From NCBI GenBank assembly GCA_965116245.1, contig OZ220497.1, positions 870,939-934,938 on the forward strand: a stretch of 64,000 nucleotides of DNA, written 5' to 3'. The DNA is from Acidimicrobiales bacterium. GTDB lineage: Bacteria; Actinomycetota; Acidimicrobiia; Acidimicrobiales; Poriferisodalaceae. Below, in pieces: positions 15,913-44,824 of this stretch (position 1 is the first letter of the stretch; every line of letters begins with the position of its first letter). The notes under the pieces were generated by a model that was not told the origin of the DNA, made no database searches, and worked only from the letters and a program-made list of their open reading frames with translations. The position numbers were made by a program, and so were the translations under genes.

Positions 15913-16318
15913 GGCATCATCTCCGTGCAGCCGGACTCGGTCCGCAGGCTCGGTCCGGAGGTCGCTCACCCACGCAACGCTAGCCGTGTCGCATTCCGAA
16001 ATCAAGCGATGTATGGTTCCGGACGAGGCCCCGGACCACGGTCACTCTGATCGGCGCTATCCGGACCCGGCCGCGGCAGCTCATCGGTCGCGCGACCGGA
16101 AGCGCTCGTCGGCTTACCAGTGAGAGCGTGCTCTCAACTGGTCCGGCGCATGGTCCAGCGCGGAGCGGCGTTCACCCAGTCTCGGGATCCAACGCACCGG
16201 GCGCCGAGCCCTCGCGAACGTCTGGACGCGTGGCGCCCACCGGTACTGCGGCTGCTCTGGCGAACAGTAATTGATCAGTGTTAGTTTATCGCTGCCGCTG
16301 ACCGCCGAGGAGATCACC

Positions 16319-17131
16319 ATGGAAATCAGCTCGTTCCCTCAGCCCCCCGTGGGCATGGAGATGAACACCACCTGGCAGGCGGTATTCACCATCGGTCAGG
16401 CGATCCCGGCCGCGATCATGATCATCATCGCGGTGCTGATGCTGCGACGGTACGGCACTCCAATCCCGCTGTTGTGCCTGGTGGGCGGCGCCGTGGCGAT
16501 CCTCATCGAACCCATTGTCGATGTACTCGGCCTGGTGTGGTTTCCCCGCGAGGGTCAGTGGGTGCTCTTAGAGGCCTTCGGCCGGCCCCTCCCGGTCTTC
16601 CTGATCGTCTACGTGTGGTTCGTCGGCGGCCAGACGTTCCTGGTCTGGCACCGGATGGAGCGAGGCGTCACGACGCGAGGGATATGGCTCATGTACCTCG
16701 CCTTCACCATCATCAACATCCCGACCGAGACACCAGGTCTCTACATGGACCTCTACGCCTACTACGGAGCGCAGCCGTTCACTCCCTTCCGTCTGCCCTT
16801 GATGTGGCCCATCGTGAATGCGCTGATGCCCCTCGCCGCCGCGACCGCCATCTACCGGTTGCGGCCTTACCTCCATGGCTGGCGGATCATCGGGGTTGTC
16901 GCGCTCGTGCCGATGGTTGACGGCACCGTCAACATCGCGACCGCGTTCCCGCTGTACATCACGCTGAACACGAACCTCGGCTTCAAGGCCACTTACCCCG
17001 CCTTCTTCGTCATGCTCGCGCTCGCATTGTTGGTGGTGAAGATCATCACCATCGCCGTAGCGACCGACACCGAGCAACCAGAACGCTCCGCAGTCACCCA
17101 CGACCGCCAGGCCGCGGTGGCCGACGGATAG
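16319..17131 (+). CDS. polytopic membrane protein (possibly distantly AveC-related)
   Basis: ATG 16319 is preceded by GAGGAG. About 7 hydrophobic helices. Confidence 0.55.
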   Translation: MEISSFPQPPVGMEMNTTWQAVFTIGQAIPAAIMIIIAVLMLRRYGTPIPLLCLVGGAVAILIEPIVDVLGLVWFPREGQWVLLEAFGRPLPVFLIVYVWFVGGQTFLVWHRMERGVTTRGIWLMYLAFTIINIPTETPGLYMDLYAYYGAQPFTPFRLPLMWPIVNALMPLAAATAIYRLRPYLHGWRIIGVVALVPMVDGTVNIATAFPLYITLNTNLGFKATYPAFFVMLALALLVVKIITIAVATDTEQPERSAVTHDRQAAVADG

Positions 17132-17287
17132 GCATCGGCGGACCTCAGACGTCGCGCTCACGGTCCACCCACGAGAGGGGATCGTGGGCACGTGGGGCTG
17201 CCTCACTAAATCGCGATCAGAGCTACGTCGTGGCGTAGGAAAGCGCTTTGGCGGGCCGATCGGGGAGGCTTCCCCGACAGATGAGTA

Positions 17288-18091
17288 TCAGCTCCACGAC
17301 TCGCCTTTCGCGGCGTCGGCCTCAGTGTCGGACAGGTAGCCGGTCCGGCGATTCGAGAGGAAGTCGCCTCGGCGTTCTGCGGCTTCGCCAAGCAGATTGA
17401 GTTCGTAGGTGTAGCTGAGTTCGGCGCGGTACCGAGTTCTGATCTCGGCCAACCCGGCTGATCCGTTCAGCGCCCGCTTCAGGCGCCTCACCACAATTGG
17501 CGATTTGTTCGCGATCGTCTGGGCCAGGACCATCGCCTCGTCGCGCAGCGACGACTCATCGACCAGCCGGTAGACGCTCCCGTGTGCTTGAAGCTCCTCG
17601 GCGCTGAAGGGCTCAGCGGTCAGCATCGCGGCGCGCAATCGCTTCTCCGGCAACAAGGCCACGGCCTGAACCCCACCGCTGGTCGCGCCGTTGTCCACCT
17701 CGGCCAGGACGAAGCGTGTGTCGTAGGCGGCAACGATAATGTCGCACATCGCGACGATCAAGACGCCGACGCCGATACAGTACCCGTGGACTGCGGCGAT
17801 GACCGGGACGGCGCATTCGGCTGCCGCGAGGCTGGCTTCTTGTGATCCGCTGGCTTGGCCAAGAATGCCGTCGTGGCTCGACAACGCATGTACTTCCTTT
17901 ACATCGCCGCCACCGCAGAACCCCTTCCCCTCTGCACGCAGCAGTACGGCGCAGACATCGGGTCGGCGTTGGACCCCAGCGAGCCGTTCGGCGAGATCGT
18001 GCAAATCGGCGATACAGAATGCGTTGACGGGTGGGTGCTTGATCACGAGTTCGAGTACACCGTCGGGATGGTGGTGCTCTGTAATCGTCAT
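17288..18091 (-). CDS. enoyl-CoA hydratase/isomerase (crotonase) family protein
   Basis: Contains VLELVIKHPPVNAF...VLLRAEGKGFCGGGDVKE. ATG 18091 is preceded by GAGG. Confidence 0.85.
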   Translation of the reverse strand: MTITEHHHPDGVLELVIKHPPVNAFCIADLHDLAERLAGVQRRPDVCAVLLRAEGKGFCGGGDVKEVHALSSHDGILGQASGSQEASLAAAECAVPVIAAVHGYCIGVGVLIVAMCDIIVAAYDTRFVLAEVDNGATSGGVQAVALLPEKRLRAAMLTAEPFSAEELQAHGSVYRLVDESSLRDEAMVLAQTIANKSPIVVRRLKRALNGSAGLAEIRTRYRAELSYTYELNLLGEAAERRGDFLSNRRTGYLSDTEADAAKGESWS

Positions 18092-18280
18092 GGTTACCTC
18101 ACAGCGGGATCGAACAGTGGCGGACACGGTGGGGAGTCGCTTGTCAACGGAAACACACGGCTCCCGCTGGTGACTGTCGCAAGACACTAGTCAGCTCGCC
18201 ATTGCATAACCAAACATCGTTTGTTAACTTGTTGCCAGACCGGTTCGACACGCGGCCGGCCGGACGTTCGGGAGCCGGAC

Positions 18281-19327
18281 ATGAAGCTCAGCCTGATGAC
18301 CCTCGGTGATCGTCTGCCAGACCCAGTCACCGGCAGGACGATGACGCCGAAAGAGCGCTACGACATGTTGCTCGACTCGGCTGTCCTGGCCGACGCGCTC
18401 GGCTTTCACGGCATCAACCTCGGCGAGCATCATGGCCTGGGCTACGAACTGTCGGCCCCACCGGTGGTGCTAGGCGCAATTGCAACCCAGACCACCCAGC
18501 TCCGCCTGTCGACGGCTGTCGCGCTGCTCGCCAACCTCGATGCCTTTCGCTTGGCCGAGGACTACGCCACCGTTGACGTGATCTCGAACGGCCGGGTCGA
18601 CATCGTCGTCGGGCGTGGCAACTTCTTCGCTTCCACCTATGAGCTCTTCGGCCAGAACGTCGACGAGTCTCGGGCTCGGTTCGACGAGAACCTAGACCTG
18701 GTCTGCCGGCTGTGGAGCGGCGAGGAGACCCACTGGCAGGGCGAGTTCCGGCCGCCGATCAACGGCGAGCCGCTGATGCCCAAGCCACTTCAGCAGGGCA
18801 CCCCACCGATCTGGGTCGGAGGCGGCAGCTCCGAGGACACGGCCCGCATCACCGGCCAGCTTGGCCTCAAACTCATGCTGCCCAGCGCGTTTGGGCCCCC
18901 AGAGAAGTTCCGCGGAGCCGTTGACGTCTACCTCGAGGCCTTCTCCGACGCTGGCCACCACCACGAGCCCGAGGTCGGCGCGAGCTGGCATCTCAACGTC
19001 GCCAAGACAAGCCAGGAAGCACGTGCGCGCTGGGAGCCGCGCTATCGCTGCTACCACGCGTGGACCCAAGACCTCCTGAAGAAGGTGAACCCCAACGTTC
19101 CCGACTACCTGCTGAGGGGGTTCGATTACGAGTGGCTCTGTGCCAGCGGCCCCGCCGTGGTCGGAAGCCCCGCGGAGACCGCCGAGAGGCTCCACAAGCT
19201 CGGCGACATGCTTGGCGCGTCGCTCCACCTCTGCTACGTCGACATGGGTGGGCTGCCCGCTGGCGAATACCTCGAGATGGTGCAGCTACTGGGCGACGAA
19301 GTCCTGCCAGCTCTCGCCGACAAGTAG
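18281..19327 (+). CDS. LLM-class (luciferase-like) flavin-dependent oxidoreductase
   Basis: Contains MKLSLMTLGD...LGFHGINLGEHHG...VVGRGNF. Confidence 0.85.
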   Translation: MKLSLMTLGDRLPDPVTGRTMTPKERYDMLLDSAVLADALGFHGINLGEHHGLGYELSAPPVVLGAIATQTTQLRLSTAVALLANLDAFRLAEDYATVDVISNGRVDIVVGRGNFFASTYELFGQNVDESRARFDENLDLVCRLWSGEETHWQGEFRPPINGEPLMPKPLQQGTPPIWVGGGSSEDTARITGQLGLKLMLPSAFGPPEKFRGAVDVYLEAFSDAGHHHEPEVGASWHLNVAKTSQEARARWEPRYRCYHAWTQDLLKKVNPNVPDYLLRGFDYEWLCASGPAVVGSPAETAERLHKLGDMLGASLHLCYVDMGGLPAGEYLEMVQLLGDEVLPALADK

Positions 19328-19359
19328 CGGGCAAGTCAAACGAGCCGGACGGGGACACA

Positions 19360-21117
19360 ATGGGGGCAATCGACAACTGGGAGACGCTGGATCCCGGCGG
19401 GCTTCACTGGGAACGCGAGGACGTGCATTGGCCCGGCAGGCTCTCGCGCTGGTGCAGCCGCATTATGGTGCGCGACTACGCACGAGGTATCGAAGAACTC
19501 GCCCGAGACCGGGGCTGGCTTATCCAAGGCGTCGGGATACGTGAGGTTGACGGGTGTGTCTACTTCGGTGTCATCCCGATAGGCGGGCGAAACCTGCCAC
19601 AGCCACCGCGATGGCTCGCGCGGATCATCATGCCGCTTGCGCTCAAGGCCATCCCCGAATTCCGTCGGCGGGTGAAGGCGCTCAACCGGGACTACGACAC
19701 CAACTACTGGGCTGGCGTCATCGACGAGTGGACGAGCGAACGCGAGTCGGAGCTGCTCGCCGAAGCAGACCGGCTGCTATCGGCGAATCTCCACGATCTC
19801 ACCGATACCGACCTCGCGAACCTGGCAATCGAGGCGATGGACCACGCGGGCGCATGCATGAAGGAACACTTCCATCTGCACGGCGCCGGGATCCACGCGA
19901 TCTCGATCCTTGGGCGTGAGCTGACCGCACACCACGGGTTCAGCACGGCGGAGTTCGCCGGGCTCTTTGTCGGCCTGAGTGATGCCACAACGGGCCCTGC
20001 CGCTGCCCAACAGAAGATCGTGGATCGCGTACGCGACGCGTCCGCCGAAGATCAGCTACGCCAAGCGGCGACGCTCGATGATGTACGCGGCATCGGCCCC
20101 GCAGTGGGCGATGCGCTCGACGAGTATCTCACCTTCTGGGGTTGTCGAGCGATCCGTTACCAGGTGGCCTTCCCCACTGTCGGCGAGCGACCGGACTGGA
20201 TCCTGTCGGCGCTGCGAACCCAACTCAACAGCCCTTCGGGCACCCCGGACCACAAGAAGCGACAAACGAGACAGCGACAGGAGGCCGAGACCCGAGTCCT
20301 CGCGGCCCTCGGCGACACGGCATCCACCAGGGCGCGCATCTCCCTCGCACAAAAGGCAGCACCGATTCGCGAGGGAAACGAGACCGCGACCGTGGCGCTT
20401 CCCGCCGCCGCGGCTCGATTCATCGGCCTCGAGATGGGCAGGCGCCTAGTCGACCGGGGAGAGCTTGAGGCGCCTGATCATGTGTTCGACCTGGAGGTCG
20501 AGGAAGTCGCCGCCCTGTTGACATCCGGCCCAGAGAGTCCTACCGTGCCGGACAACGCCCGAGAACTCGCAGCGACACGCTACGACCATCGAACGTCAGA
20601 TGCCTCCGAACCGCCGCGCGAGTTCGGCAGGCCCGTTGAGCCACCAGACGTTGAGTTCTTCCCGCCGAGGGTCGCGGAAACGATGGGCGCCCTCCTCTGG
20701 CTCGTCGAAAAGGGCGGCGCTGGCGCGGAGGCGTCAGATGACGGTGATGCAGCCGCCGCCGCGGCAGCCGCCGCCGTGGAGACCGAGCCGGGCGCGCTCC
20801 GGCTCGATGGTGTTGCTGCATCCACCGGCATCTATGAGGGTCCTGCACGAATCATTGGGGGCGAGCACGACTTCGACAAATTGGAGGATGGCGATGTCAT
20901 GGTGTGTCCGATCACCTCGCCGATCTGGTCGATGCTCTTCCCCAAGATCGGCGCATTGGTGTGTGATGCGGGCGGTCCGATGAGCCATCCCGCGATCGTC
21001 GCTCGCGAGTTCGGCATTCCAGCCGTGCTCAACGTGCGGACGGCCACCGAGACGATTCAGGACGGTCAGCTTCTGCGAGTCGATGGCGACAACGGGATTG
21101 TGCTCGCCGTCGACTGA
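19360..21117 (+). CDS. PEP-utiliser swivel-His domain protein with a ~450-aa helical N-terminal region and no ATP-grasp
   Basis: The C-terminus is DGDVMVCPITSPIWSMLFPKIGALVCDAGGPMSHPAIVAREFGIPAV. ATG 19360 lies 32 nt after the LLM stop. Confidence 0.8.
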   Translation: MGAIDNWETLDPGGLHWEREDVHWPGRLSRWCSRIMVRDYARGIEELARDRGWLIQGVGIREVDGCVYFGVIPIGGRNLPQPPRWLARIIMPLALKAIPEFRRRVKALNRDYDTNYWAGVIDEWTSERESELLAEADRLLSANLHDLTDTDLANLAIEAMDHAGACMKEHFHLHGAGIHAISILGRELTAHHGFSTAEFAGLFVGLSDATTGPAAAQQKIVDRVRDASAEDQLRQAATLDDVRGIGPAVGDALDEYLTFWGCRAIRYQVAFPTVGERPDWILSALRTQLNSPSGTPDHKKRQTRQRQEAETRVLAALGDTASTRARISLAQKAAPIREGNETATVALPAAAARFIGLEMGRRLVDRGELEAPDHVFDLEVEEVAALLTSGPESPTVPDNARELAATRYDHRTSDASEPPREFGRPVEPPDVEFFPPRVAETMGALLWLVEKGGAGAEASDDGDAAAAAAAAAVETEPGALRLDGVAASTGIYEGPARIIGGEHDFDKLEDGDVMVCPITSPIWSMLFPKIGALVCDAGGPMSHPAIVAREFGIPAVLNVRTATETIQDGQLLRVDGDNGIVLAVD

Positions 21118-21129
21118 CCCGGCGGCCAG

Positions 21130-21396
21130 CTACCTGGCGAGCGCCACCGTGTGGCGCTCTGTTAACACCTCCATCCCCCACCGACCATTCTCCACGCCAA
21201 CGCCACTCGACTTGACCCCACTGAAGGGCTGATCCACGGCAGCGACAGCGCGTGCGTTAATCCACGTCATGCCAGCATCCAGACGCGACGCCAGCGCGGC
21301 AGCTTGTGCTGGATCAGCGGACCAAATCGAGGAATCAAGCCCGTAGTCGGTAGTGTGGTCATGCGGACGCTCCCCGAGTGAGGAAGCCGCGATCAC
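21130..21396 (-). pseudogene. aldehyde dehydrogenase C-terminal remnant (about 80 aa only)
   Basis: YGLDSSIWSADPAQAAALASRLDAGMTWINA...PFSGVKSSGVGVENGRWGMEVLTERHTV matches the ALDH C-terminus. The upstream ~400 codons are missing, and that space is occupied by the hydrolase gene in another frame. Confidence 0.7.
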
Positions 21397-22540
21397 TCAT
21401 CCACGAGCCGATATGGCCGAGGGCTTCTGCGAGATGAACACGGCCATCGGGACCAGCAAAGTAGTGGCTGGCGTGAGCCACGATGTAGCTCGCGAAGTCC
21501 GAGGCTGCGATAGCAGCTTCGATCTGTGCTGTGTGTTCCACCGGGCACGCGTCGTCGGCGCCAGCCGTGATGAGCAACGTTGGGATCTGGATCCGCGGCC
21601 CCGAGTCCACGATGTCAACCTGCGCGTCGTCGTAGCTCCACTGACTGAGCCAGCTCCGAAGCGATGTGAATCGCCCGAGCCCAGCCGGTGAGTTGTTGAC
21701 CACTCCAGGCTCGCCCATGTAGGTCATGTTTGGCTTTCGGTCATTCGGATCCACGGTGACATCGAGCCAGCGAGGATCCGCCATCGTGCCGTGGACCACG
21801 AAGCTTCGCTCCTCGGCGAAGCGCTCTTCCTCGGCCAATGCGGCGAGCTGCTCTTTGACCCAGGACGTGATCCGGCGGTTCCTTTGTAGCTGCGCTTCAC
21901 GATACTCCGCCACAAACCCATCACTGTATGGCGGCTGAGCGGGGTTCTTCGGATCGTAGAGATCAAACTCGGCTCGACGATGCGACTCGGGGCGCTGCTC
22001 GTCGGTGATCGAGGCGTCGAGCTGACCGGTCAGGAGATGGTGGCGGCTGCGATGTGTGGCCATGAGAAGCAGGCCGTCGACGGGCAGGAGCTCGACATCG
22101 ACCAGCGGGGTCGGCTCGCCGGAGGCGGCCGCCGAGATCACCCGTTGGGTGCTCTCCGCGACGTAGCCAGCCATCACGGCACCACCGCCGCTCCAGCCCG
22201 CGAGGACGACCTTTTCGTAGCCAAGACGCTCCCGGGTGTCTCGAACGCAAGCCGCGAGATCGACCAATACGTTCTCCATTTGCAGGGAGGCGTCACCGGT
22301 CGAATACCGGGTGGCGCACGCGACCACGTCGAACCCGGACCGTCCAAGCTGCGAAAACATCGGCAGATAACCGGGAGCTGCGATCGGGTGCATGCCGATG
22401 ATGGCTGTATCGGCCAGGGTCTCCCCTCGAAGGTGCTGTGCCTGGAGCACCACGTTGTTGCCAATCGAGCCGTAAACATCCTTGCGCGCTGACTGCTCGG
22501 TATGGACGATCAGGTATGGCTCCCGGTTGTACTTCGACAC
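21359..22540 (-). CDS. alpha/beta-hydrolase fold protein
   Basis: 393 aa with a GWSGG nucleophile elbow. GTG start. Confidence 0.7.
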   Translation of the reverse strand: MSKYNREPYLIVHTEQSARKDVYGSIGNNVVLQAQHLRGETLADTAIIGMHPIAAPGYLPMFSQLGRSGFDVVACATRYSTGDASLQMENVLVDLAACVRDTRERLGYEKVVLAGWSGGGAVMAGYVAESTQRVISAAASGEPTPLVDVELLPVDGLLLMATHRSRHHLLTGQLDASITDEQRPESHRRAEFDLYDPKNPAQPPYSDGFVAEYREAQLQRNRRITSWVKEQLAALAEEERFAEERSFVVHGTMADPRWLDVTVDPNDRKPNMTYMGEPGVVNNSPAGLGRFTSLRSWLSQWSYDDAQVDIVDSGPRIQIPTLLITAGADDACPVEHTAQIEAAIAASDFASYIVAHASHYFAGPDGRVHLAEALGHIGSWMSDRGFLTRGASA

Positions 22541-22655
22541 GATGTCCTACTCCTGTCTCGACATCACAATCCACTTACCATACACTGTTTGATTAATGGG
22601 GGTTTCTGACAGGGTTGGCAAGATGGCAAAGGCGCTGTCGCGCGAGCGCCAGCAC

Positions 22656-24857
22656 ATGCCGATTCACTACTCATTCACGGAGCCGTCGGCAGTCAGCCGA
22701 CAAGAACGGCGCGCCCTCCTCGGCGGCAAGGGTGCTGGCCTCGCTGACATGGCCCAGCGAGGCCTCCCGGTACCCCAGGGGTTCACGCTGACCACCGAGG
22801 CATGCCGTGCCTACCGCGCCTCAGGCTGGTCCACTGTTCACGAGACCGCGGTAAACGAAGGTCTCGGCAAGCTCGAAGAGCAGTCCTCGCGGAAACTCGG
22901 CTTCCGCGATCGCCCGCTACTCGTGAGCGTCCGGTCCGGGGCAGAGATCTCCATGCCAGGAATGATGGACACCGTGCTCAACGTGGGCATGAACGACGAG
23001 GTCGAGGCCGCGCTCGCTGCCGAGACCGGCGATCCGGAGTTCGCAGCCGATGCTCATCGACGCTTCGTGCTGGCGTACGCGGAAATCGTGGAGGGCGCGC
23101 CGGGCGATGTGCTCGCCGCCGTAGCCACCGCGTATCCCGCTGCAACGGCCCAAGAGCTGCGGAACTCACTCACTGACTCCGGCTACACAGTCCCGAAGGA
23201 TCCGGCTCGCCAACTCACCGAGGCCATCAAGGCCGTCTTCAGTTCCTGGGATACCCCAAGAGCCATCGCTTACCGTCAACATGAAGGCATTGCTGCGGAT
23301 CTCGGGACTGCGTGCTCGATCCAGCGGATGGTCTTTGGCAATCTCGGTTCCGACTCCGGTACCGGGGTCGCCTTCACCCGCCACCCTTCGACGGGCGAGC
23401 CCGGCCTTACCGGCGACCTCCTCGTCGGCGCCCAAGGCGAGGACGTCGTCTCAGGCGCACATCAGACACAGGCCCTGGACACGATGGCAACCATCTGGCC
23501 AGCGGCCTATGACCAGCTCGCCCAGCTCGCCAACGAACTCGAGCACGACTACCGCGACATGGTCGACATTGAGTTCACCGTCGAGAAGGGCATGCTCTGG
23601 CTCCTGCAGTCCCGCGTCGGCAAGCGCAGTCCAGCAGCGGTGTTCAGAACCGCGTTGGACATGGCGGAGGACCCGTCCTTCCCGCTCGACCGAGACGAGG
23701 CCGTCGAGCGATGCCGCTCCCTGTTCAACAACCCGCCGATGCGCACCTCGACCCCCACGGATCCAGGTTCGACGCACGAGGTGATCGCCGCTGGCCTCCC
23801 TGCGTCGCCCGGCCGAGTTTCGGGCGCACTCCACACTGACATTGAGCGAGCAATCCGCGAGGCCGAAGCGGGCAATGCCGTCATCCTGGCTCGACCAGAG
23901 ACCTCGCCGCGGGATGTCCACGGAATGACAGCCGCCAGCGGTCTGTTGACAACCCTGGGTGGCACGGTGAGCCACGCGGCCGTCGTCGCCCGTTCCTGGG
24001 GGCTGCCAGCTGTCGTCGGAGCGGACGATGTCGACGTCACCGACACCGGGATCACCTGTTCCGGTCGACACATCGAGATCGGGACAACCGTCACCATCGA
24101 CGGGACCTCAGGCGAATTGCTGCTTGGCGCACATGATGGCGATCTCGTCCACCTCCCGGAGGTCGCGACCATCAAGAGGTGGGCCCAGGAAGGGACGACC
24201 CGAGACTCGGACCAGGTTGACCTCGCCGAGAGCGACCAGCCCGAGTTCGAACCGGCCCTTCGCCTCCTCGCGATCAAGGGCGCTGCGACGGTGACGGTCC
24301 TCGCCGACGCCCTCGCTGCCACCGAGGCGGCCACTGCGACCGTCTTGGGCAAAGCCGAAGCGAACAGTCTGGCGACCGAGAGCGCGGGCACGTGGAAGCT
24401 GACCGAGAATGCCGCCCACGTCATCGCCTCGATAGCCGGATCACCGAGCGACGCGGAGCGAGAAGCGCTTGGCGCGATCCTCGACCGGTTCCATGGACCC
24501 AACCTGGAACTAAAAGCCCTCGTGACCCAATGGCAGATGCGCACGATCGACGACGAGGCCGTGGTCAACGACCACTCGGACTCTGCCTATGACCAATCGC
24601 TCATCGGCACGCTTCGTGACGACGTCCACCCGGCTGTGACCGCCATTGTCGAGGAAACTGCAGCGCTCACCGACCACATGGCGGACTACTCGAGACGGTT
24701 AGATCGGGCCCTCTTGCGACTTGAGCAGGGCGACCGCAGTTACATGGCACACCCGCTTCTCGACTCGTATCACACGGTCTGGTTCGAGCTCCATGAAGAA
24801 CTCATCCGTCTAGCCGGGCGCACCCGACGCGACGAAGCGGAGGCTGGCCGTGCCTAA
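22656..24857 (+). CDS. pyruvate-phosphate-dikinase-like protein: ATP-grasp plus swivel-His, with the TIM-barrel domain replaced by a wHTH-like/helical C-terminus
   Basis: RRALLGGKGAGLADMAQRGLPVPQGFTLTTEAC is the PPDK N-terminus. TTLGGTVSHAAVVARSWGLPAVVG is the phosphohistidine motif. There is no PEP/pyruvate-binding region. Alternative starts are 22596 and 22623. Confidence 0.8.
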   Translation: MPIHYSFTEPSAVSRQERRALLGGKGAGLADMAQRGLPVPQGFTLTTEACRAYRASGWSTVHETAVNEGLGKLEEQSSRKLGFRDRPLLVSVRSGAEISMPGMMDTVLNVGMNDEVEAALAAETGDPEFAADAHRRFVLAYAEIVEGAPGDVLAAVATAYPAATAQELRNSLTDSGYTVPKDPARQLTEAIKAVFSSWDTPRAIAYRQHEGIAADLGTACSIQRMVFGNLGSDSGTGVAFTRHPSTGEPGLTGDLLVGAQGEDVVSGAHQTQALDTMATIWPAAYDQLAQLANELEHDYRDMVDIEFTVEKGMLWLLQSRVGKRSPAAVFRTALDMAEDPSFPLDRDEAVERCRSLFNNPPMRTSTPTDPGSTHEVIAAGLPASPGRVSGALHTDIERAIREAEAGNAVILARPETSPRDVHGMTAASGLLTTLGGTVSHAAVVARSWGLPAVVGADDVDVTDTGITCSGRHIEIGTTVTIDGTSGELLLGAHDGDLVHLPEVATIKRWAQEGTTRDSDQVDLAESDQPEFEPALRLLAIKGAATVTVLADALAATEAATATVLGKAEANSLATESAGTWKLTENAAHVIASIAGSPSDAEREALGAILDRFHGPNLELKALVTQWQMRTIDDEAVVNDHSDSAYDQSLIGTLRDDVHPAVTAIVEETAALTDHMADYSRRLDRALLRLEQGDRSYMAHPLLDSYHTVWFELHEELIRLAGRTRRDEAEAGRA

Positions 24858-27698: not shown

Positions 27699-28421
27699 CT
27701 ACGCGCGGGACAGCGTCGGTTCTCCGTTCGTCGCGTCAATGAGCGCCGCAAAGCCCGCGATGATCGATCGCGCCACGAGGTCGAACGTCTCGTCGTGGTC
27801 CATGCTCGCCTGACGGGCGAGCGCGAAGAGATGCGGGTAGTCCTCTTGCCAGTCGCGGGCATCGTCGGTGTCTTCGGCGGCATCGATCGGGCTGGCGTAC
27901 ATGACGGTGCCAATCGCCAACGCCTCGAGGCTCTCGAGCAACGGGAGAACAAGATCGCGGGTGACGCCTTGGACGGCGAGGAGCGCGGCTGTCGCGTTGT
28001 GTTCACGGAGGCCGATACGCATCGCGTGGCGTCGTACGAGCAACGGCATCAGATTTGGGTGCGCCAACAATGCGCGACGGAACTCGAGGAGGTTCGACAG
28101 CAGCCACTCCTGCCAGTCGGCAGCGGGATCTGTGGGCGTGCGCACTCCCTCGAGGGCAAGCGTCGCGACGCCGACCAGAATCTCGTCCTTGTTCCGGAAG
28201 TGGTGGTAGAGCGAGGCACCGTTGATGCCCAACTCCTCCGCCAAGCGGCGGATCGTCAGCGCTTCCAACCCTTCGCGGTCTGCGATCGCCAGTGCGACAT
28301 CCAGCGTCTTTCGCTGCGAGACCAGCGGAACTTTCGGTCGGGCCACGGGCTGCTCCTGGTCGTGGTGCGTTTGGTAACCAGGGTTCACGGTACCGCGCAG
28401 ACCACCGAAAGATACCTGCAT
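27699..28421 (-). CDS. TetR-family transcriptional regulator
   Basis: Contains LDVALAIADREGLEALTIRRLAEELGINGASLYHHFRNKDEIL. The start may be internal. Confidence 0.85.
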   Translation of the reverse strand: MQVSFGGLRGTVNPGYQTHHDQEQPVARPKVPLVSQRKTLDVALAIADREGLEALTIRRLAEELGINGASLYHHFRNKDEILVGVATLALEGVRTPTDPAADWQEWLLSNLLEFRRALLAHPNLMPLLVRRHAMRIGLREHNATAALLAVQGVTRDLVLPLLESLEALAIGTVMYASPIDAAEDTDDARDWQEDYPHLFALARQASMDHDETFDLVARSIIAGFAALIDATNGEPTLSRA

Positions 28422-28568
28422 CTCAACCCGCTGGCAGATTATCCATCGTTGTTTGATATAATAGCGGCGCGTGGTTGCTGACAGCGTTCGCGTTCGTGAT
28501 GTCGGACCCCGGGACGGGCTTCAGTCGGTTGCGCCCGATCTGAGCCTTGACGCGAAGCTTCGCTTGAG

Positions 28569-29123: not shown

Positions 29124-29191
29124 CCTCTAACCTCCAAAGACCGAATCTAACAATGCTTGGTTACGCTGTGCAAACCCACCGCAAGACAGCA

Positions 29192-31640: not shown

Positions 31641-31739
31641 ACAGCGGCCTCCCGCAACCGAGTGTTACTGCAAATCTATCACTGTTTGATTAGCGAGACC
31701 AGGCGGTGTCGTAGGCGCATGCGAGCGACGGAAGTCCGG

Positions 31740-32882: not shown

Positions 32883-32965
32883 CGATCACCGTCCTCCATT
32901 CGATTCACTACGATCCATCATCATTAGGCAATTCGAGGAGATCGGAGGCGGGCCACACCGGGCCT

Positions 32966-34294: not shown

Positions 34295-34368
34295 TTATCC
34301 ATCATTGATTGGATTATGTCAGACTGTCTCGACACTGTCAGTCAGCCGGATGAGGAGAGCGCAGATCG

Positions 34369-35712: not shown

Positions 35713-35720
35713 GTTTACGA

Positions 35721-35768
35721 TACGTTGTTGGATTACCGTACGTTGTTTGATTACCGTTTGGTTACCGG
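35721..35768 (+). promoter_or_regulatory. tandem AT-rich box, 2 full copies plus a partial (tacgttgtt[g/t]gattaccg), upstream of the SCP2-P450 operon
   Basis: Read directly. It belongs to the island-wide motif family described in the findings. Confidence 0.5.
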
Positions 35769-36198: not shown

Positions 36199-36206
36199 GG
36201 ACACCA

Positions 36207-37682: not shown

Positions 37683-38378
37683 TCACGTATGCACGCCAAG
37701 CAGCTCATAAACGTACAGTCCGACCATCATGGCGGTGGCGAAAGCCGCGTGTGGCAGCGCCAGCCCGATCAAGAAGATCGCCGTTCGAGTGCGTGGTGGG
37801 TGTTGGCGATCATCGGCGGCGACGTTGAGGTCGTCCCAGCCAAGCTGATCGAGAATGTGTCGAGCCTGCGAGATCATGAACAGAGTGACCACGAGCATCA
37901 GGCCCGTCGTAACGAAGTGCAGCCACGGGATGTTGAAGAAAAGCCACTTGTCATCGAGCCCGTAGATGTTGGCCTCGGTCAGCTCGATCATCATGCCCTC
38001 GACAATGATGTTGGCGACGTAGACCCCGACCATGGCGATGCCATAGCGCCATCCGCCGAGACGATCTCGAAGTGGCTCGTCGAGGTACTTGAGCCACACC
38101 ACGGTCAAGATGCCGAAAAAGGCACCATAGGAGAGCGGCGCCCAGAGCGCTTCGCCGCGCCCGCCCCATGTCGCGATCCACATCGAGTCCGGGTGGAACT
38201 CCATGTTCCACATCTCCGGACCAGCGTATACCCAGTCGTGTTGCCAACTCAGGAATGCGCCTAAGTAGACGCCGAGTATGAGCCCGCGCCTGGTCTGGGT
38301 CCAGACGAGCCAGAGCCCCGCGAGGAAGGCGAGGAGAAACCCGGCCTCCACCAGCCTCACACCTACCGTTGCGATCAT
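37683..38378 (-). CDS. polytopic membrane protein, possibly a short AveC-superfamily member
   Basis: 231 aa. LSWQHDWVY resembles the AveC ASWQSPLMNW region. ATG is preceded by AGGGGAG. Confidence 0.5.
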   Translation of the reverse strand: MIATVGVRLVEAGFLLAFLAGLWLVWTQTRRGLILGVYLGAFLSWQHDWVYAGPEMWNMEFHPDSMWIATWGGRGEALWAPLSYGAFFGILTVVWLKYLDEPLRDRLGGWRYGIAMVGVYVANIIVEGMMIELTEANIYGLDDKWLFFNIPWLHFVTTGLMLVVTLFMISQARHILDQLGWDDLNVAADDRQHPPRTRTAIFLIGLALPHAAFATAMMVGLYVYELLGVHT

Positions 38379-38520
38379 CGCGCGTCTCCCCTAACTAGCC
38401 GGAGGCACCATAATCTAACGACGTTCGGTGACTCGGTCGACCGAATAGCCCTGGCCATCCGCCGCCCACCTCCGTCGTGTCGACGCCGCCTGCGATCGCG
38501 TGCCACCACCTCTGGTTCGA

Positions 38521-38549
38521 TTGACACGCGTAACCCAACGTCGTATGGT
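38521..38549 (+). promoter_or_regulatory. sigma-70-like promoter TTGACA-17 nt-TATGGT
   Basis: Read directly, about 50 nt upstream of ATG 38601. Confidence 0.45.
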
Positions 38550-38600
38550 TTCACTGAGTCGACAGCAAGTCAACGACCGCCCAAACACATCAGGATTGGT

Positions 38601-39575
38601 ATGGAAGTTCACGGAGGGGGCACGGCGCCCGAGCTCGGGTCCGAGGACGAAGGGCACCACCCGACCGGCAACGACGAGACCTGGCAGGAGAGCGTGGTTC
38701 TCGTCTGGTGGGACCTCACTGCCGAGGTCGGGGGAATGCACCGCATCGGCTATGAGCCGAACTGGCGAGACGGCGGCCAAGTCTCATTGTGGAACAACAT
38801 CTTCTCTGCCGATGCTGTCTTCAAGCGCTCCGCGACGATCCCCCTCACGGACGTTCACCCGACCGGCACGATCTTCTCTTCGGGCGATGGCACCTGCCAG
38901 TTCGAATACACCGACCACGCGATCTGGACGATCTCAGAGGAGGAGGTCCAGGCCGAGTTGCACGTGACCGATGCCCACACGCCGGTTGACATCTATCCCA
39001 AGCAGTCCACCCTCGGCCAAGACTTCGCGCCGAATCACATGGAGGTCGGCGGAACGGTGCGGGGGACATGCACCATCGATGGGCGCCGCTACGACGTCGA
39101 TGGGCTAGCCTTTCGCGACCACGGCTGGGGGACACGTCGGTGGGATACCCTGCTGAGCCATCGCTGGGTCGCTGGCGCATTCGCGCCCGACTTCAGCTTC
39201 TTCGCGGTGTCGTTCCACACCAGCGATGACGAAATCGTCGGTTTCGGCTGCGTGATCCGGGAGGGTGTCCTAATCTACGCCCAGGTCGACATCGTGGCGT
39301 ACCTTGAAGTCGACGGTCTCACCCACCGAGGTGGTCGAGTGACGATGTCTCTGACGACAGGCGAGACGCTCGTGCTCGAGTGCGACGCCTTGCAGAAGGG
39401 AACCGTTTCCTGGATTCACGACATTGCCTGCGTCGACACGATGTGCAAGGTGACTCTCGGCGACCGCGTGGGAATGTGTGATTTTGAGACGACCAACAAC
39501 GCACTTCGAGGGTCACATCAACCGAGGAAGGCGATCGGCGGCTACATCGAGAACGGGCTGCACCGAATCCAGTGA
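38601..39575 (+). CDS. conserved-looking beta-rich protein of unknown function (RDHGWGTRRW motif; possibly CrtC/AttH-like)
   Basis: 324 aa with no TM segment. The family assignment is a weak recollection. Its stop overlaps the GTG of the next gene (GTGA). Confidence 0.6.
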   Translation: MEVHGGGTAPELGSEDEGHHPTGNDETWQESVVLVWWDLTAEVGGMHRIGYEPNWRDGGQVSLWNNIFSADAVFKRSATIPLTDVHPTGTIFSSGDGTCQFEYTDHAIWTISEEEVQAELHVTDAHTPVDIYPKQSTLGQDFAPNHMEVGGTVRGTCTIDGRRYDVDGLAFRDHGWGTRRWDTLLSHRWVAGAFAPDFSFFAVSFHTSDDEIVGFGCVIREGVLIYAQVDIVAYLEVDGLTHRGGRVTMSLTTGETLVLECDALQKGTVSWIHDIACVDTMCKVTLGDRVGMCDFETTNNALRGSHQPRKAIGGYIENGLHRIQ

Positions 39576-41209
39576 GAACCGCAGGAGACGCGATGGACCT
39601 CAACCGTAGCCCTGTACACACCCGATCGCACCCGACCACGAGATGGTCCCGGGCGAACTTCGCCGAAGCGGTCCAAGGAGTCCAGACTCCCCTGGGCTGG
39701 ACATTTTGGGATCACGTCGCCGAGACCTCGGTGCGCCAGTGCTTCTCCGACATCGGTGGTATTGCGGCCAAGGACGCCCCGCCCCCAGCCGACCCGAACC
39801 TTAAGTTCAACGCGCCGTTCTTCGGTCTCCCGGCTGGCAACGTCACCTTCTTTCACTCTATCGGCGAGGCGCTCCCGGGAACCTCTGGCGACGTCGTCAT
39901 CAAGCAAATGTTCGGGGAGGAGCCCGGGGTCGTCACCCCCAGCGCCCGCGCGAGCTGGCTCCGACCGATCATTGCGGGATTCAAGATGCCAGCGGCTGCG
40001 ATCCGCTCGACGCGGCGGGTCGTCACCGTCCACAACCAAGTCGCAGACTGGTGGCGTCGAGGGGTGCTCAAGCAACCGCCGGACGACCTGGCCGGAGCGC
40101 AACGGCTGTTGAACGAGGCGGCCGAGTGGTTCATCCGCGTTGGACGGCATCACGCGACGGTGTCGCTGATCGGTCAAGCCCTAGTCGAACAAGTTGAACT
40201 CGTCATTGAGCACGCGTTCGGTGACCGAAGCCGAACCTCTGATGTCCTCACCGGCCTCGGGGGCATGGAGGAGACAAAACTCATGACCGCGATCTGGGAG
40301 GCGGCCCAGGGGCAAAGCGACGTCGCCTCGATCATCGCCGCCTTCGGCTTCCACGGACCCGACGAGGGAAACGTGACGAGCGTCTCGTGGCGAGAAGACG
40401 ACGGCCCGGTTCACGACCTCGTGGCCAACTATGAGGATGCCGGGGTGCATGACCCACGGGAGCGAGAACGCGAGCAGACCACCAAGCGCGAGGTCGTCGA
40501 GCGGGAACTCCTCGATGCGCTCGACCCGCTCAGACGCCAGCGCGCCAAGATCGTGCTTCGCCTCACGCGCACGCTCGTCCCCCGCCGCGAGATCGGCAAG
40601 GCTGGCTTCCTGATGGCGATCGATGGCGCACGCTGCGCCGCACGGTGCGCTGGTAGTGAGATGGCGCGGGCCGGAACGCTCAACGAAACCGACGACATCT
40701 TTTTCGTCACCTTCGACGAACTGGCAAGCGGGGATCAGGTCGACCGCGCAACGATCGAGTCGCGCAAACGACACCATCGCCACTTCGAAGGGCTGACCGT
40801 TGCCCAGGCATGGACTGGGAACCCGGACCCGATCGAAGACCCTGACGTCAGCGAGGCCAGTGCGCCGCGAACGAGGCCGCCGGGAAACGTCGTCCAAGGG
40901 ATCGGCGTCGTGGGTGGGACAGTCCGGGGGCGCGCGCGGGTCTTGGACGACCCGACCTCGGGTCCACTGGCGCCAGGCGAGATACTCGTTTGCCGAACGA
41001 CTGATCCGAGCTGGACACCGCTATTCCTGGTCGCTGACGCTCTGGTGATCGACACTGGCGGATCGATGAGCCACGGTGCGATCGTGGCGCGGGAACTCGG
41101 CGTGACGTGCGTGATCAACACGATCGATGGCACGGCCGCGATTCCCGACGGCGCCATGATCGAAGTCAACGGCAGCGACGGCACCGCCGTCATCATCGAT
41201 GCCGAATAG
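39572..41209 (+). CDS. PEP-utiliser swivel-His domain protein, paralogue of 19360..21117
   Basis: The C-terminus is GEILVCRTTDPSWTPLFLVADALVIDTGGSMSHGAIVARELGVTCV. The alternative start is ATG 39593. Confidence 0.8.
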   Translation: MRTAGDAMDLNRSPVHTRSHPTTRWSRANFAEAVQGVQTPLGWTFWDHVAETSVRQCFSDIGGIAAKDAPPPADPNLKFNAPFFGLPAGNVTFFHSIGEALPGTSGDVVIKQMFGEEPGVVTPSARASWLRPIIAGFKMPAAAIRSTRRVVTVHNQVADWWRRGVLKQPPDDLAGAQRLLNEAAEWFIRVGRHHATVSLIGQALVEQVELVIEHAFGDRSRTSDVLTGLGGMEETKLMTAIWEAAQGQSDVASIIAAFGFHGPDEGNVTSVSWREDDGPVHDLVANYEDAGVHDPREREREQTTKREVVERELLDALDPLRRQRAKIVLRLTRTLVPRREIGKAGFLMAIDGARCAARCAGSEMARAGTLNETDDIFFVTFDELASGDQVDRATIESRKRHHRHFEGLTVAQAWTGNPDPIEDPDVSEASAPRTRPPGNVVQGIGVVGGTVRGRARVLDDPTSGPLAPGEILVCRTTDPSWTPLFLVADALVIDTGGSMSHGAIVARELGVTCVINTIDGTAAIPDGAMIEVNGSDGTAVIIDAE

Positions 41210-43161: not shown

Positions 43162-43850
43162 GAAGACCCTCCGAGGTAGCTGGCTTCCAAGGCGGTACGG
43201 TTGGCCAACAGCGCCTGCGCCGTCTCCTCCATGGTGACCCTTCCCAGCGAGAGCACGTAGGCCCGGCTCGCGGTGTGGAGTGATTGCCGGACATGTTGCT
43301 CGACGAGCACGACGGCAAGGTTGCGATCCGCTGCTGCTTCGCAAAGCCGCTCAAGCAATCGATCGACGACCCGCGGCGCCAGCCCGAGCGAGAGCTCGTC
43401 GACGAAGAACAGGCGAGGGCGCGTCGCCAGGGCTCTCGCCAGCGCCACCATCTGTTGCTCGCCACCGGACAAGAGTCCGGCCCGTAGGTTGAGCTTGTCG
43501 TGGAGTTCGGGGAACAGGTCGACGATCGAGCGGTCGCCTCGGCGAACGAGCCGCAGGTTCTCTGCGACGGTCAACCCCGACACGATGCCGCGTTCCTCGG
43601 GCACGAGCGCCATCCCTGCCCTGACCCGCCAATGCGGCGGAGTGTCGCGGAGGTCATCGCCATCGAACCGGACCGAGCCCGCCATAGGGCGTATGAAGCC
43701 CATGATGGTCGAGAGCAACGTCGTCTTTCCTGCGCCGTTCGGCCCGAGGATCGCCACGATCTCGCCAGCCTCGACATCGATGTCGACCTCGTGGACCGCG
43801 GCGTTGTTCCCGTAGCCCGCGACCAGACCGGTTACTTTGAGCAGGCTCAT
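43158..43850 (-). CDS. livF: ABC transporter ATP-binding protein, LivF type
   Basis: Contains GPNGAGKTT, LSGGEQQM and FVDE. Confidence 0.9.
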   Translation of the reverse strand: MSLLKVTGLVAGYGNNAAVHEVDIDVEAGEIVAILGPNGAGKTTLLSTIMGFIRPMAGSVRFDGDDLRDTPPHWRVRAGMALVPEERGIVSGLTVAENLRLVRRGDRSIVDLFPELHDKLNLRAGLLSGGEQQMVALARALATRPRLFFVDELSLGLAPRVVDRLLERLCEAAADRNLAVVLVEQHVRQSLHTASRAYVLSLGRVTMEETAQALLANRTALEASYLGGSS

Positions 43851-44590
43851 GCGCCCGATCCCAAGTAGGCCTCGACGACCCGGGGATCGGCCACAACCTC
43901 CATGGGATTTCCTGAGGCGATGAGTTCGCCGAAGTCGAGGACGAACAGATCGTCGCAGACCTTGAGGACGAGGGACATGTCGTGATCGATCAGCAAGATC
44001 CCTACCCCTGTCGACGCGATCGCTCGCAGCACGTCACCCAGCTCTGCAGTCTCATCGTGATCGAGACCCGCCGCGGGCTCGTCGACCAAGAGACACGAGG
44101 GTTGGCACATCAGAGCCCGAGCGAGAGCCACCCGCCGGAGATCACCCGCTGACAGGTCAGCAGCGGGCGTGTCCGCGAGGTGCGAGACACCCAGGAGGTT
44201 CAACACCGTCGCGGGCTCGAACGAACCATCGCGCCGAGACCCCGCACCCGCGACCGTGAGGTTCTCGCCAACTGTCAGATCATCAAACAGCTCGAGGTTC
44301 TGGAATGTCCGGACGAGGCCTGCGCGCACTCGCCGACTCGGCTTCATCGCGCCCAGCGACTCATCACCGAGCAAGACTTCGCCCGAGCGCACCGGAAGGA
44401 AACCAGTGACCGCGTCAACGAGGGTGGTCTTCCCCGCTCCATTGGCTCCGACCAGCCCCACGACCCGGCCCGGTTCTACGACAAGGGTCACATCGTGAAC
44501 TACGCGTGTCGACCCATAGGCGACATCAAGGTTCCGGATGGCGAGCGCGCGGCGGCAGTCATGTTCCAGTACGTCCCAGATGCCGCTCAT
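43847..44590 (-). CDS. livG: ABC transporter ATP-binding protein, LivG type
   Basis: Contains GANGAGKTT, LSAGDLRRV and LVDEPAAGL. Confidence 0.9.
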   Translation of the reverse strand: MSGIWDVLEHDCRRALAIRNLDVAYGSTRVVHDVTLVVEPGRVVGLVGANGAGKTTLVDAVTGFLPVRSGEVLLGDESLGAMKPSRRVRAGLVRTFQNLELFDDLTVGENLTVAGAGSRRDGSFEPATVLNLLGVSHLADTPAADLSAGDLRRVALARALMCQPSCLLVDEPAAGLDHDETAELGDVLRAIASTGVGILLIDHDMSLVLKVCDDLFVLDFGELIASGNPMEVVADPRVVEAYLGSGA

Positions 44591-44824
44591 CTCCCCCCTG
44601 TCCCACCGCCTCGGCCCTCTCTGGCGGGGTCGGCGTATCCCAACGCCAGTTGATTACCAACGACAGACCTCGCCAGCGGGGCACGCCCGCAGGCGAGCAC
44701 TCCCTCCCAACGGCCTGCCGCGCTGCGTGTTCGGAAGGCTACTTGATAATCTAGCAGTGTTAGGCAACTATGGTCTCATTGTCGGAGGTGAAAGTCGCCT
44801 CCACGAGCATCTAGGGAGAAGACC

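Follow-up and report, generated by a model that had tools for sequence, protein, structure and literature searches.

What is the function of an AT-rich box that recurs in the promoter-bearing gaps of a 29-kb gene island in a sponge-associated, uncultivated actinobacterium (Acidimicrobiia)? The island lies in a 64-kb stretch of DNA, analysed here in full (the window). The initial annotation of this DNA read the box either as the operator of a single regulon, with the TetR-family protein encoded in the island as candidate regulator, or as a promoter element recognized by an alternative sigma factor. Our analysis makes it very probable that the box serves as operator in a local regulon under a TetR-family repressor, with a dimer of the island TetR binding a 21-bp site.

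A 21-bp palindrome in the promoter gaps of the island

All 11 box positions quoted in the initial annotation carry the sequences given for them. The same holds for the 13-mer CACTGTTTGATTA, found in identical form at 22583 and at 31680, for the tandem pair spanning 35721-35755 and for the TTATCCATC / CGATCCATC element at 28439, 34295 and 32911. The box is also enriched over shuffled background: TGTTNGNTTA has 6 matches, all 6 in gaps (range 16279-35753), against 0.33 expected (sd 0.57, max 2; 100 dinucleotide shuffles), and TGTTTGATTA, allowing at most 2 mismatches, has 30 against 13.3 expected. The box is not, however, the one-sided element of 15-17 nt that had been described, but half of a palindrome of 21 bp, TAAyCnAACr-N-yGTTnGrTTA, that is centred on a single base; the supposed separate second sub-box, GATGGATAA, is the opposite arm of the same palindrome. 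When a weight matrix was trained solely on the arms quoted earlier and the mirrored arm was then scored, this untrained arm fell within the top 0.02-0.2% of half-site scores in the window (tail probability 0.0002-0.002) at 10 of 10 sites. The half-site, reading outward from the central base pair, is yGTTnG(A/G)TTa, with G at position 2 in 24/24 copies, G at position 6 in 22/24 and T at position 8 in 23/24. The element is thus a short inverted repeat, as an operator would be.

A scan of the whole window with the palindrome returned 12 sites of at least 17 bits (next best 9.8) and 13 of at least 16 bits, all of them within 15999-44767, with none of at least 16 bits in the remaining 35 kb (Table 1). 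Two of the strong sites, 15999-16019 and 44747-44767, had been overlooked, and three of those quoted or implied earlier (34295-34316, 44636-44656 and 32911-32931) are weak.

Table 1. Putative operators of the island and the gene for their proposed regulator (L001, Candidatus Poriferisocius; L083, a further locus from Acidimicrobiia)
Feature	Position	Gene context	Score	Conservation, promoter elements and remarks
Operator AAATCAAGCGATGTATGGTTC	15999..16019	Start of AveC-like membrane protein gene (-)	19.6 / 22.1 bits	
Operator TAATTGATCAGTGTTAGTTTA	16268..16288	31 nt ahead of ATG 16319, multi-pass membrane protein gene (+)		
Operator TAACCAAACATCGTTTGTTAA	18207..18227	Common to divergent enoyl-CoA hydratase (-) and luciferase-like monooxygenase (+) genes	28.9 bits	20/21 identical in L001
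Operator TTACCATACACTGTTTGATTA	22575..22595	Common to alpha/beta-hydrolase (-) and PPDK-like (+) genes	31.2 bits	20/21 kept in L001, flanks down to about 80%; overlaps sigma-70-like -10
TetR-family regulator gene, proposed repressor	27699..28421	(-)	Pfam TetR_N (PF00440) 1.4e-12, TetR_C_1 (PF02909) 8.7e-8	
Operator TTATCCATCGTTGTTTGATAT	28439..28459	Upstream of TetR gene (-)		Left arm is GATGGATAA; 21/21 identical in L001, flanks diverged; overlaps minus-strand -10-like hexamers TATTAT / GATAAT
Operator GAATCTAACAATGCTTGGTTA	29143..29163	Upstream of glyoxalase-family gene (-)	26.2 bits	21/21 in L001
Operator AAATCTATCACTGTTTGATTA	31672..31692	Upstream of P450 gene 30450-31640 (-)	30.3 bits	21/21 in L001
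Doubtful degenerate site CGATCCATCATCATTAGGCAA	32911..32931	Upstream of CoA-transferase gene 31740-32882 (-)	-5.0 bits, sub-threshold	L001 counterpart CGATCCCTCATTGTTGGGATA closer to consensus, right arm near-consensus
22-bp variant operator TTATCCATCATTGATTGGATTA, one extra central base	34295..34316	Between two divergent amine-oxidase-type flavoprotein genes	16.6 bits as 21-mer	22-bp spacing kept in L001; overlaps 10/12 sigma-70-like promoter of minus-strand gene
Overlapping operators 35715-35735 and 35733-35753, plus half-site 35755-35764	35715..35764	Upstream of SCP2-P450 genes (+)		Array arose through local duplications of 18 and 11 bp; L001 has one clean palindrome here
Operator TAATCTAACGACGTTCGGTGA	38411..38431	33 nt ahead of membrane protein gene 37683-38378 (-)		
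Operator TAACCCAACGTCGTATGGTTT	38531..38551	Upstream of DUF7065/7064 and PEP-utiliser genes (+)		Contains -10 (TATGGT) of 10/12 sigma-70-like promoter with perfect TTGACA; near-identical copy precedes AveC-like gene in L083
Weak site TATCCCAACGCCAGTTGATTA	44636..44656	ABC ATPase (-) side of gap	9.1-9.2 bits	
Operator TAATCTAGCAGTGTTAGGCAA	44747..44767	58 nt ahead of solute-binding protein gene 44825 (+)	18.7 / 23.3 bits	

At 42-60% GC, the site-bearing gaps are richer in AT than the genes, which would fit a similarity that reflects generic AT-rich promoter composition, or a small dispersed repeat (MITE- or REP-like), and involves no specific binding protein. We consider this extremely unlikely, since composition-preserving block-wise shuffles (n=300) yielded a mean of 0.017 palindrome sites (max 1) against the 12 observed, and the same consensus is found in orthologous gaps of distant phyla (see below). 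Moreover, the copies vary from one to another at the variable positions but keep G2, G6 and T8, a pattern more in line with selected contacts than with copying and pasting, and an RNA hairpin with a stem of 10 bp and a loop of 1 nt is implausible. Promoter gaps beyond the island, as far as the 64-kb window extends, likewise have no palindrome; the regulon may nevertheless be larger or less island-specific than the window suggests.

Within the island, the palindrome occupies 11 of the 12 promoter-bearing gaps and none of the 5 convergent ones; no site was found ahead of the Zn-ADH gene (gap 30299-30449). Where divergent gaps are long (222-265 bp), they hold two sites, one near each gene; where they are short (33-74 bp), they hold a single site that would serve both. 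For 14 of 16 flanking genes the site lies 11-68 nt upstream of the likely start codon, and the set is completed by the LivG-side site and the TetR-gene site (about 100 nt upstream of the likely TetR start). Three of four sigma-70-like promoter predictions overlap a palindrome, and the outer AT-rich arms hold -10-like hexamers (e.g. TATGGT, CATAAT and TATAAT). At the level of predicted promoters, the sites are therefore placed as operators would be, at the promoters of their candidate targets, overlapping core elements and including the promoter of the regulator itself. Location in promoter gaps and the presence of such hexamers would also be expected of a -10 or -35 element recognized by an alternative sigma factor, but this second suggestion of the initial annotation is highly improbable. 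A promoter of that kind is a directional, bipartite -35/-10 structure, whereas the element is dyad-symmetric about a fixed one-base centre, shows no consistent orientation to the downstream gene, serves both genes of a short divergent gap from one copy and is accompanied by no recurrent second hexamer at a fixed spacing of 16-18 nt. Nor is there a sigma factor gene within the island.

The island TetR protein and its relatives

Of the 25 island genes, we find that only the one for the TetR-family regulator encodes a DNA-binding domain (Pfam), and that the two genes lacking Pfam matches encode multi-pass membrane proteins. The regulator combines a TetR-type helix-turn-helix with a putatively ligand-binding C-terminal domain and is encoded among the genes it would regulate. 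Its longest open reading frame starts at ATG 28421 (240 aa), but the true start is likely GTG 28346 (215 aa), because GGAG lies 6 nt before this codon and the N-termini of orthologues begin M(A/G)RPK; this start places the operator about 93 nt upstream, farther than at other genes. Across the orthologues and the more distant relatives, the recognition helix, SLYHHFRNKD, does not vary. The orthologues also have a common basic N-terminal arm, RPK(V/I)PL(I/V)S, and it may be that this arm contacts the outer AT-rich arms of the operator, as the N-terminal extension of SimR does.

Loci that encode a TetR orthologue (34-68% identity) contain 2-8 palindromes of at least 16 bits each, 39-41 in total, nearly all in gaps adjoining gene starts and with the consensus found in the window, tGTTtGnTTa. 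These loci come from Acidimicrobiia (L002, L005, L008 and L083), Streptomyces (L003, L004 and L007), Amycolatopsis (L006 and L011), a member of the Thermoleophilia (L018), the alphaproteobacterium Terricaulis silvestris (L081) and one further locus (L082). The Terricaulis sites occupy the same divergent gap between the enoyl-CoA hydratase and luciferase-like monooxygenase genes as in the window. Control loci with only more distant TetR relatives gave 2 palindromes of at least 16 bits in 1.16 Mb of GC-rich DNA. Regulator and operator thus co-occur and co-vary across genomes of two phyla; the loci were retrieved by a TetR search, so this co-occurrence was tested TetR-first and not motif-first. 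Several orthologue loci (L002, L003, L005 and L007) have no clear site directly before the TetR gene, indicating that autoregulation is not universal. In a related genome, Candidatus Poriferisocius (L001), whose TetR is 96% identical, operators are identical at 20-21 of 21 positions where the flanks fall to about 80%, and the substitutions that do occur are at degenerate or central positions; judged from this comparison, the operators appear to be under purifying selection. At 40 of 72 loci with more distant relatives, against 1.05 expected, the highest-scoring palindrome in the entire 20 kb falls upstream of the TetR gene and no more than 250 bp from it. This related site reads yGTAAGGTT and shares the one-base centre, G2 and G6.

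It is conceivable, but in our view unlikely, that the palindrome is the operator of another dimeric transcription factor, a global or pathway regulator encoded outside the window, and that the island TetR controls something else or only itself. Binding of TetR is here predicted from sequence, the loci were collected through TetR, and some of them lack a site before the TetR gene, all of which would be compatible with another factor. Against this, the island encodes no second DNA-binding protein, the motif tracks the TetR orthologue over two phyla and is almost absent from the control loci, and the palindromes that precede the distant relatives' own genes are typical of TetR autoregulation. Symmetry, placement, the sole DNA-binding protein, co-occurrence, conservation and the palindromes of distant relatives all support the single-operator proposal of the initial annotation, with the island TetR as predicted regulator.

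Comparison with known TetR-family systems

The closest solved structures by sequence are those of ActR (2opt) and TetR(G) (6rxb), both with E about 1e-14, and SimR (2y2z, 4.5e-9), which share the C-terminal family TetR_C_1 with the island protein. The tetracycline operator tetO is an odd-centred palindrome, ...TATCA-N-TGATA..., and several island arms match this pattern literally (e.g. CTATCA-C-TG at 31672), although the island operator is longer and is conserved out to position +/-10. The island TetR is nevertheless not a tetracycline repressor of the TetR(A-H) type, scoring 85.1 bits against an NF010319 equivalog cut-off of 265, and whereas tetracycline TetR controls one efflux gene, the island protein is proposed to act at about a dozen catabolic promoters. 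Among distant actinomycete relatives (L020-L072), most of which are 28-38% identical to the island TetR, the recognition helix is the same and so is the operator geometry, with a one-base centre, G at +/-2 and +/-6 and TT at +/-8 and +/-9. They differ in having AA rather than Tn at half-site positions 4-5, and a single site before the regulator gene rather than a multi-promoter regulon. Our literature search found no published description of either the TetR orthologue group or these relatives.

In its regulatory layout the island resembles the system of KstR, the TetR-family protein that represses cholesterol and lipid catabolism in Mycobacterium and Rhodococcus and whose dimer binds a short palindrome with AAC...GTT overlapping putative -10 regions; the KstR motif is found in many intergenic regions of a catabolic cluster, often divergent ones, sometimes twice per gap and also at its own promoter (PMC1995591). 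The island shares with it the AAC...GTT palindrome, the overlap of this palindrome with -10-like sequences, its recurrence across a catabolic cluster that includes the regulator's own promoter, its placement between divergent genes and in some gaps in two copies, and a gene content similar in style (P450s, CoA ligases and transferases, hydratases and flavoenzymes). The KstR core, however, is TnnAACnnGTTnnA, 14 bp long and with an even centre of 2 nt, while the island site spans 21 bp, has AAC and GTT spaced 3 rather than 2 nt apart (r-N-y) and carries conserved outer TTA arms, and so does not correspond to that core. The island TetR is not a KstR orthologue either, as it scores 20.8 bits against the NCBIfam NF033703 cut-off of 280 and has a C-terminal domain of the TetR_C_1 family. 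The system is therefore analogous to KstR but outside the KstR family, and its regulatory principle, a TetR dimer on promoter-overlapping palindromes, is a textbook one: a regulatory system of ordinary kind controlling a catabolic island whose pathway is uncharacterised.

A proposed repressor regulon

We propose that dimers of the island TetR (27699-28346/28421, minus strand) would bind the 21-bp dyad-symmetric sites, one dimer per site, and would repress rather than activate transcription. About 13 sites are predicted to overlap -10-like hexamers at roughly 11-12 transcription units, so that bound repressor would block RNA polymerase. The repressed units would be those for three membrane proteins; the enoyl-CoA hydratase and luciferase-like monooxygenase; the hydrolase, PPDK-like enzyme, CoA-transferase and CoA ligase; TetR itself; the glyoxalase; a P450 and the Zn-ADH; two flavoproteins; SCP2 and a P450; DUF7065 and a PEP-utiliser; and the Liv-type ABC importer. 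The island would then be turned on when the C-terminal domain binds a small-molecule ligand, presumably either the substrate of the pathway or one of its CoA-thioester intermediates, and TetR leaves the DNA.

The operator would tie about 25 genes of unassigned pathway into one co-regulated unit, as read from the DNA alone, and with its portable weight matrix the same predicted regulon can be picked out in Streptomyces, in Amycolatopsis, in other Acidimicrobiia and in Terricaulis. More tentatively, and with considerable doubt, we suggest that this TetR/operator pair may mark an uncharacterised conserved catabolic regulon that is common to Actinomycetota and Alphaproteobacteria, has probably passed between them and here has recruited unusual parts for the ATP-dependent breakdown of a host-derived compound. 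Those parts would be three PPDK/PEP-utiliser-type phosphotransferases, DUF7065/7064, three AveC-like or unknown membrane proteins, two P450s and HpnE/CrtI-like flavoproteins, and the compound undergoing ATP-dependent activation and breakdown could be alicyclic, terpenoid or sterol-like. The conserved core of the regulon comprises an enoyl-CoA hydratase, a luciferase-like monooxygenase, a CoA-transferase and ligase, an alpha/beta-hydrolase, a glyoxalase, a P450 and flavin reductases, and could guide substrate identification in culturable hosts. If the shared-regulon reading is true, the operator would allow regulon-guided discovery of a whole pathway together with a new ligand-responsive TetR switch.

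A palindrome in the promoter-bearing gaps of the island

We have found that the AT-rich box reported as recurrent in the initial annotation, all of whose quoted sequences occur at the coordinates quoted for them, is strongly over-represented in the window, but that it is merely one arm of a larger element. The core TGTTNGNTTA occurs six times against 0.33 expected, in every case between genes, and TGTTTGATTA, allowing up to two mismatches, occurs 30 times against 13.3 expected. Inspection of the flanks revealed that each box belongs to a 21-bp palindrome centred on a single base, TAAyCnAACr-N-yGTTnGrTTA, of which it forms one arm. When a matrix trained only on the ten arms of that annotation was used to score the mirrored positions, each of the ten other arms ranked among the highest 0.02-0.2% of the window's half-site scores. 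The sequence GATGGATAA, previously taken for a second, separate sub-box, is simply the opposite arm of the palindrome at 28439-28448 and 34295-34304.

Scanning the whole window with both arms of the matrix gave 12 sites of at least 17 bits, the next best match scoring 9.8 bits. All 12 lie within 15999-44767, two of them are new (Table), and 300 block-wise shuffles yielded a mean of only 0.017 such sites. The half-site reads y-G-T-T-n-G-(A/G)-T-T-a; counting outward from the central base, G2 is present in 24 of 24 half-sites, G6 in 22 of 24 and T8 in 23 of 24. Exact IUPAC patterns with at least 14 specified bases matched no more than 13 of 54 known sites, full-length patterns matched 0-3, and no Rfam RNA family overlapped the boxes.

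We refer to these sites as operators, a name that presumes binding by the TetR-family protein encoded in the island. Counting the doubtful site at 32911, 11 of the 12 island gaps that require a promoter carry one; the exception is the sole promoter-type gap of the window without an operator, and no site occurs in the 753 bp that make up the five convergent gaps. Long divergent gaps have two sites each, one beside each gene, and short divergent gaps (33-74 bp) have one site common to both genes. The box had alternatively been proposed to be a promoter element for an alternative sigma factor, a reading that is excluded by the dyad symmetry of the element, its lack of orientation and the sharing of one copy in divergent gaps.

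For genes other than that of the regulator, site centres lie 11-68 nt 5' of the best-supported start codons, several of which follow a ribosome-binding site of the GGAG type. Of the four sigma-70-like promoters predicted in the island, three overlap a site; one of them is a perfect TTGACA-N17-TATGGT with its -10 inside the operator at 38531-38551. Since the promoter scan was a crude consensus match, we regard the overlap of sites with -10 elements as suggestive only. We also considered whether the box is itself the -10 of leaderless genes, and dropped this reading because the element is symmetric and most of the genes start downstream of it, behind a Shine-Dalgarno sequence (examples are GGAG-N7-GTG at 22540, GGGAG before ATG 18281 and GGAG before ATG 16319).

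Recent local duplication produced the tandem copies at 35721-35755 and placed three operator right arms consecutively; in the nearest genome (L001, a MAG of Candidatus Poriferisocius) one clean palindrome occupies the position of this array. We note that directly 3' of the 34295 operator lies TGTCAGACTGTCTCGACACTGTCAG (34318-34346), with repeated CTGTC/TGTCAG units that are mostly kept in L001, and that CTGACAG also occurs at 22607 and 28478, close to operators. As a second motif CTGACAG was set aside; it lies downstream of three boxes in inconsistent orientation, and one copy is the -35 of a predicted promoter.

Features of the window named in the text (window positions)
Feature	Position	Strand	Remark
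TetR-family regulator gene	27699-28421	-	longest ORF
Site new to this analysis	15999-16019
Site new to this analysis	44747-44767
Weak/atypical site	34295-34316		one extra central base; spacing kept in L001
Weak site	44636-44656		about 9 bits
Weak site	32911-32931		below threshold in window; better in L001
Direct array of three operator right arms (TGTTGGATTA, TGTTTGATTA, CGTTTGGTTA)	35715-35764		spacing 18 and 11 bp
Long divergent gap	16006-16270		two sites
Long divergent gap	38379-38600		two sites
Long divergent gap	44591-44824		two sites
Promoter-type gap	30299-30449		no site
Multi-pass membrane protein gene	14932-16005	-	own operator
Multi-pass membrane protein gene	16319-17131	+	own operator
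Multi-pass membrane protein gene	37683-38378	-	own operator
PPDK-like/PEP-utiliser gene	19330-21117
PPDK-like/PEP-utiliser gene	22596-24857
PPDK-like/PEP-utiliser gene	38601-41209
tRNA-Lys (anticodon ttt)	46293-46368	+	185 bp after last cluster gene (solute-binding protein, ends 46108)

The island TetR protein and its relatives

The TetR-family protein is the only island protein with a DNA-binding domain. Its longest ORF (240 aa, from ATG 28421) appears over-extended, and from the sequence its true start is probably GTG 28346, which lies 6 nt downstream of a GGAG and yields an N-terminus, MARPKVPL, matching that of the orthologues, which begin M(A/G)RPK; the 25-residue extension is the part least conserved in L001. 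With GTG 28346 as start codon, about 93 nt would separate it from the gene's upstream operator (28439-28459).

In L001 the TetR protein is 96% identical and gene order is syntenic. The operators are identical at 20-21 of 21 positions where the flanks drop to ~80% identity, and the few changes are at degenerate or central positions. L001 lacks the first CoA-transferase gene (window 24967-26014) and has an additional ~1.36 kb of sequence separating Zn-ADH from P450 (window 30315-30318), in the operator-free gap.

Homologues were sought in one genome per species and by a metagenomic look-up. Loci with TetR orthologues (34-68% identity) carry 2-8 copies of the palindrome each, 39-41 sites of at least 16 bits in total, nearly all in gaps adjoining gene starts; they come from other Acidimicrobiia (L002, L005, L008, L083), Streptomyces (L003, L004, L007), Amycolatopsis (L006, L011), a Thermoleophilia MAG (L018), the alphaproteobacterium Terricaulis silvestris (L081) and a further contig (L082). 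These sites, absent from matrix training, have the consensus tGTTtGnTTa, and those of Terricaulis lie in the divergent gap between enoyl-CoA hydratase and luciferase-like monooxygenase genes, the same gap as window site 18207-18227. In a control set, 1.16 Mb of GC-rich loci with only distant TetR relatives gave two matches of at least 16 bits outside the regulator's upstream region. A reading of the box as generic AT-richness or as a dispersed repeat is excluded by the shuffles that preserve composition, by which positions are fixed and which are free, and by conservation across phyla in orthologous gaps. That the palindrome is the site of a different regulator encoded elsewhere is an unlikely alternative, which nothing supports. 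The motif, its symmetry, placement and conservation, and its co-occurrence with TetR orthologues are direct observations, and together they support the earlier proposal of a single regulon operator, predicted to be bound by the island TetR protein.

The recognition helix SLYHHFRNKD is invariant in orthologues and distant relatives, and orthologues alone have the basic N-terminal arm RPK(V/I)PL(I/V)S. On tetO, the contacts of TetR span roughly +/-7 bp, a reach that leaves out the conserved outer TTA (positions 8-10); this TTA may be read by the N-terminal arm, by analogy with SimR.

Among 72 loci of distant relatives, 40 have the highest-scoring palindrome of their 20 kb no more than 250 bp upstream of the TetR gene, where 1.05 such loci would be expected. 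There the half-site is yGTAAGGTT, in which G2, G6 and TT are retained, as is the one-base centre. In a large group of actinomycete TetR relatives (L020-L072; 28-38% identical, with the same recognition helix) the 21-bp palindrome (A)ACCTT(A/G)C(G/A)-N-(C/T)G(T/C)AAGGTT stands directly 5' of the regulator's own gene, at ~9890-9995 of each locus, and on this sequence evidence it is apparently an undescribed class of autoregulatory operator. A full-text literature search with the half-site strings and the related palindrome returned unrelated primer or vector matches only, a keyword search for a described regulon with such a gene set returned nothing relevant, and a literature search on 'Poriferisocius' gave coral microbiome papers only. 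All 85 TetR homologues bear generic TetR/AcrR names, and neither these names nor the literature searches yielded a named or published orthologue.

Genes associated with the operators

The window is ~63% GC, and at ~15-46 kb of it Pfam and NCBIfam describe a dense catabolic cluster. Besides the regulator it encodes an enoyl-CoA hydratase, a luciferase-like monooxygenase, an alpha/beta-hydrolase, two family-III CoA-transferases, an AMP-ligase, a glyoxalase-family protein, a Zn-ADH, two P450s, two amine-oxidase/HpnE-like flavoproteins, SCP2, DUF7065/DUF7064, a Liv-type ABC importer, one PPDK-like protein, two PEP-utiliser 'mobile domain' proteins and three multi-pass membrane proteins, one AveC-like and two without a Pfam or NCBIfam match. 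An AveC-like gene beside the TetR orthologue in L083 (Acidimicrobiia) also bears an operator. The 3' end of the tRNA-Lys that follows the cluster is not repeated elsewhere in the window, and so there is no sign of an integration scar at this gene.

Orthologous regulons have in common with the island the enoyl-CoA hydratase, luciferase-like monooxygenase, CoA-transferase, AMP-ligase, alpha/beta-hydrolase, glyoxalase and P450 homologues. They add flavin reductases, OYE-type reductases, nitronate-monooxygenase-like proteins, EthD, dodecin, riboflavin kinase, HMG-CoA-lyase-like proteins and, on contig L082, a limonene-epoxide-hydrolase-like protein. This enzyme set resembles that of alicyclic or terpenoid ketone catabolism via CoA thioesters, a likeness that goes no further than resemblance. 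One PEP-utiliser of the island is paired with a DUF7065/DUF7064 protein, and the TetR orthologue of Amycolatopsis L006 is flanked by operator-bearing homologues of the PPDK-like and PEP-utiliser proteins; these proteins suggest an ATP- or PEP-dependent activation step in the pathway. In L005 (347-847, 9576-9914) and L007 (254-1453, 7874-8476) the genes with predicted operators include those for riboflavin kinase, for dodecin and for flavin reductases of two kinds, which points to a conserved pathway that needs much flavin or has a flavin-related substrate.

Comparison with known repressors and a model

The best-supported model is that a TetR-family repressor controls the island. At about a dozen transcription units, that of its own gene included, a TetR dimer would repress from operators that overlap the core promoter, until a pathway-related small molecule released it; binding, sign of regulation, stoichiometry and ligand are here modelled on TetR-family precedent such as KstR (PMC1995591). 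The KstR regulon has an AAC...GTT palindrome, many sites in catabolic clusters, sites in divergent gaps and autoregulation (PMC1995591), all of which have counterparts here, autoregulation as a prediction. Nevertheless, the island protein is not a KstR member, scoring 20.8 bits against a cut-off of 280 bits, and the spacing and length of the sites differ; nor is it a tetracycline repressor (85 bits against a cut-off of 265). Its closest relatives in sequence are ActR, TetR and SimR. The system is an uncharacterised member of a very well-known kind, the TetR-family repressors, and is of practical use as a marker of the regulon for a pathway of unassigned substrate.
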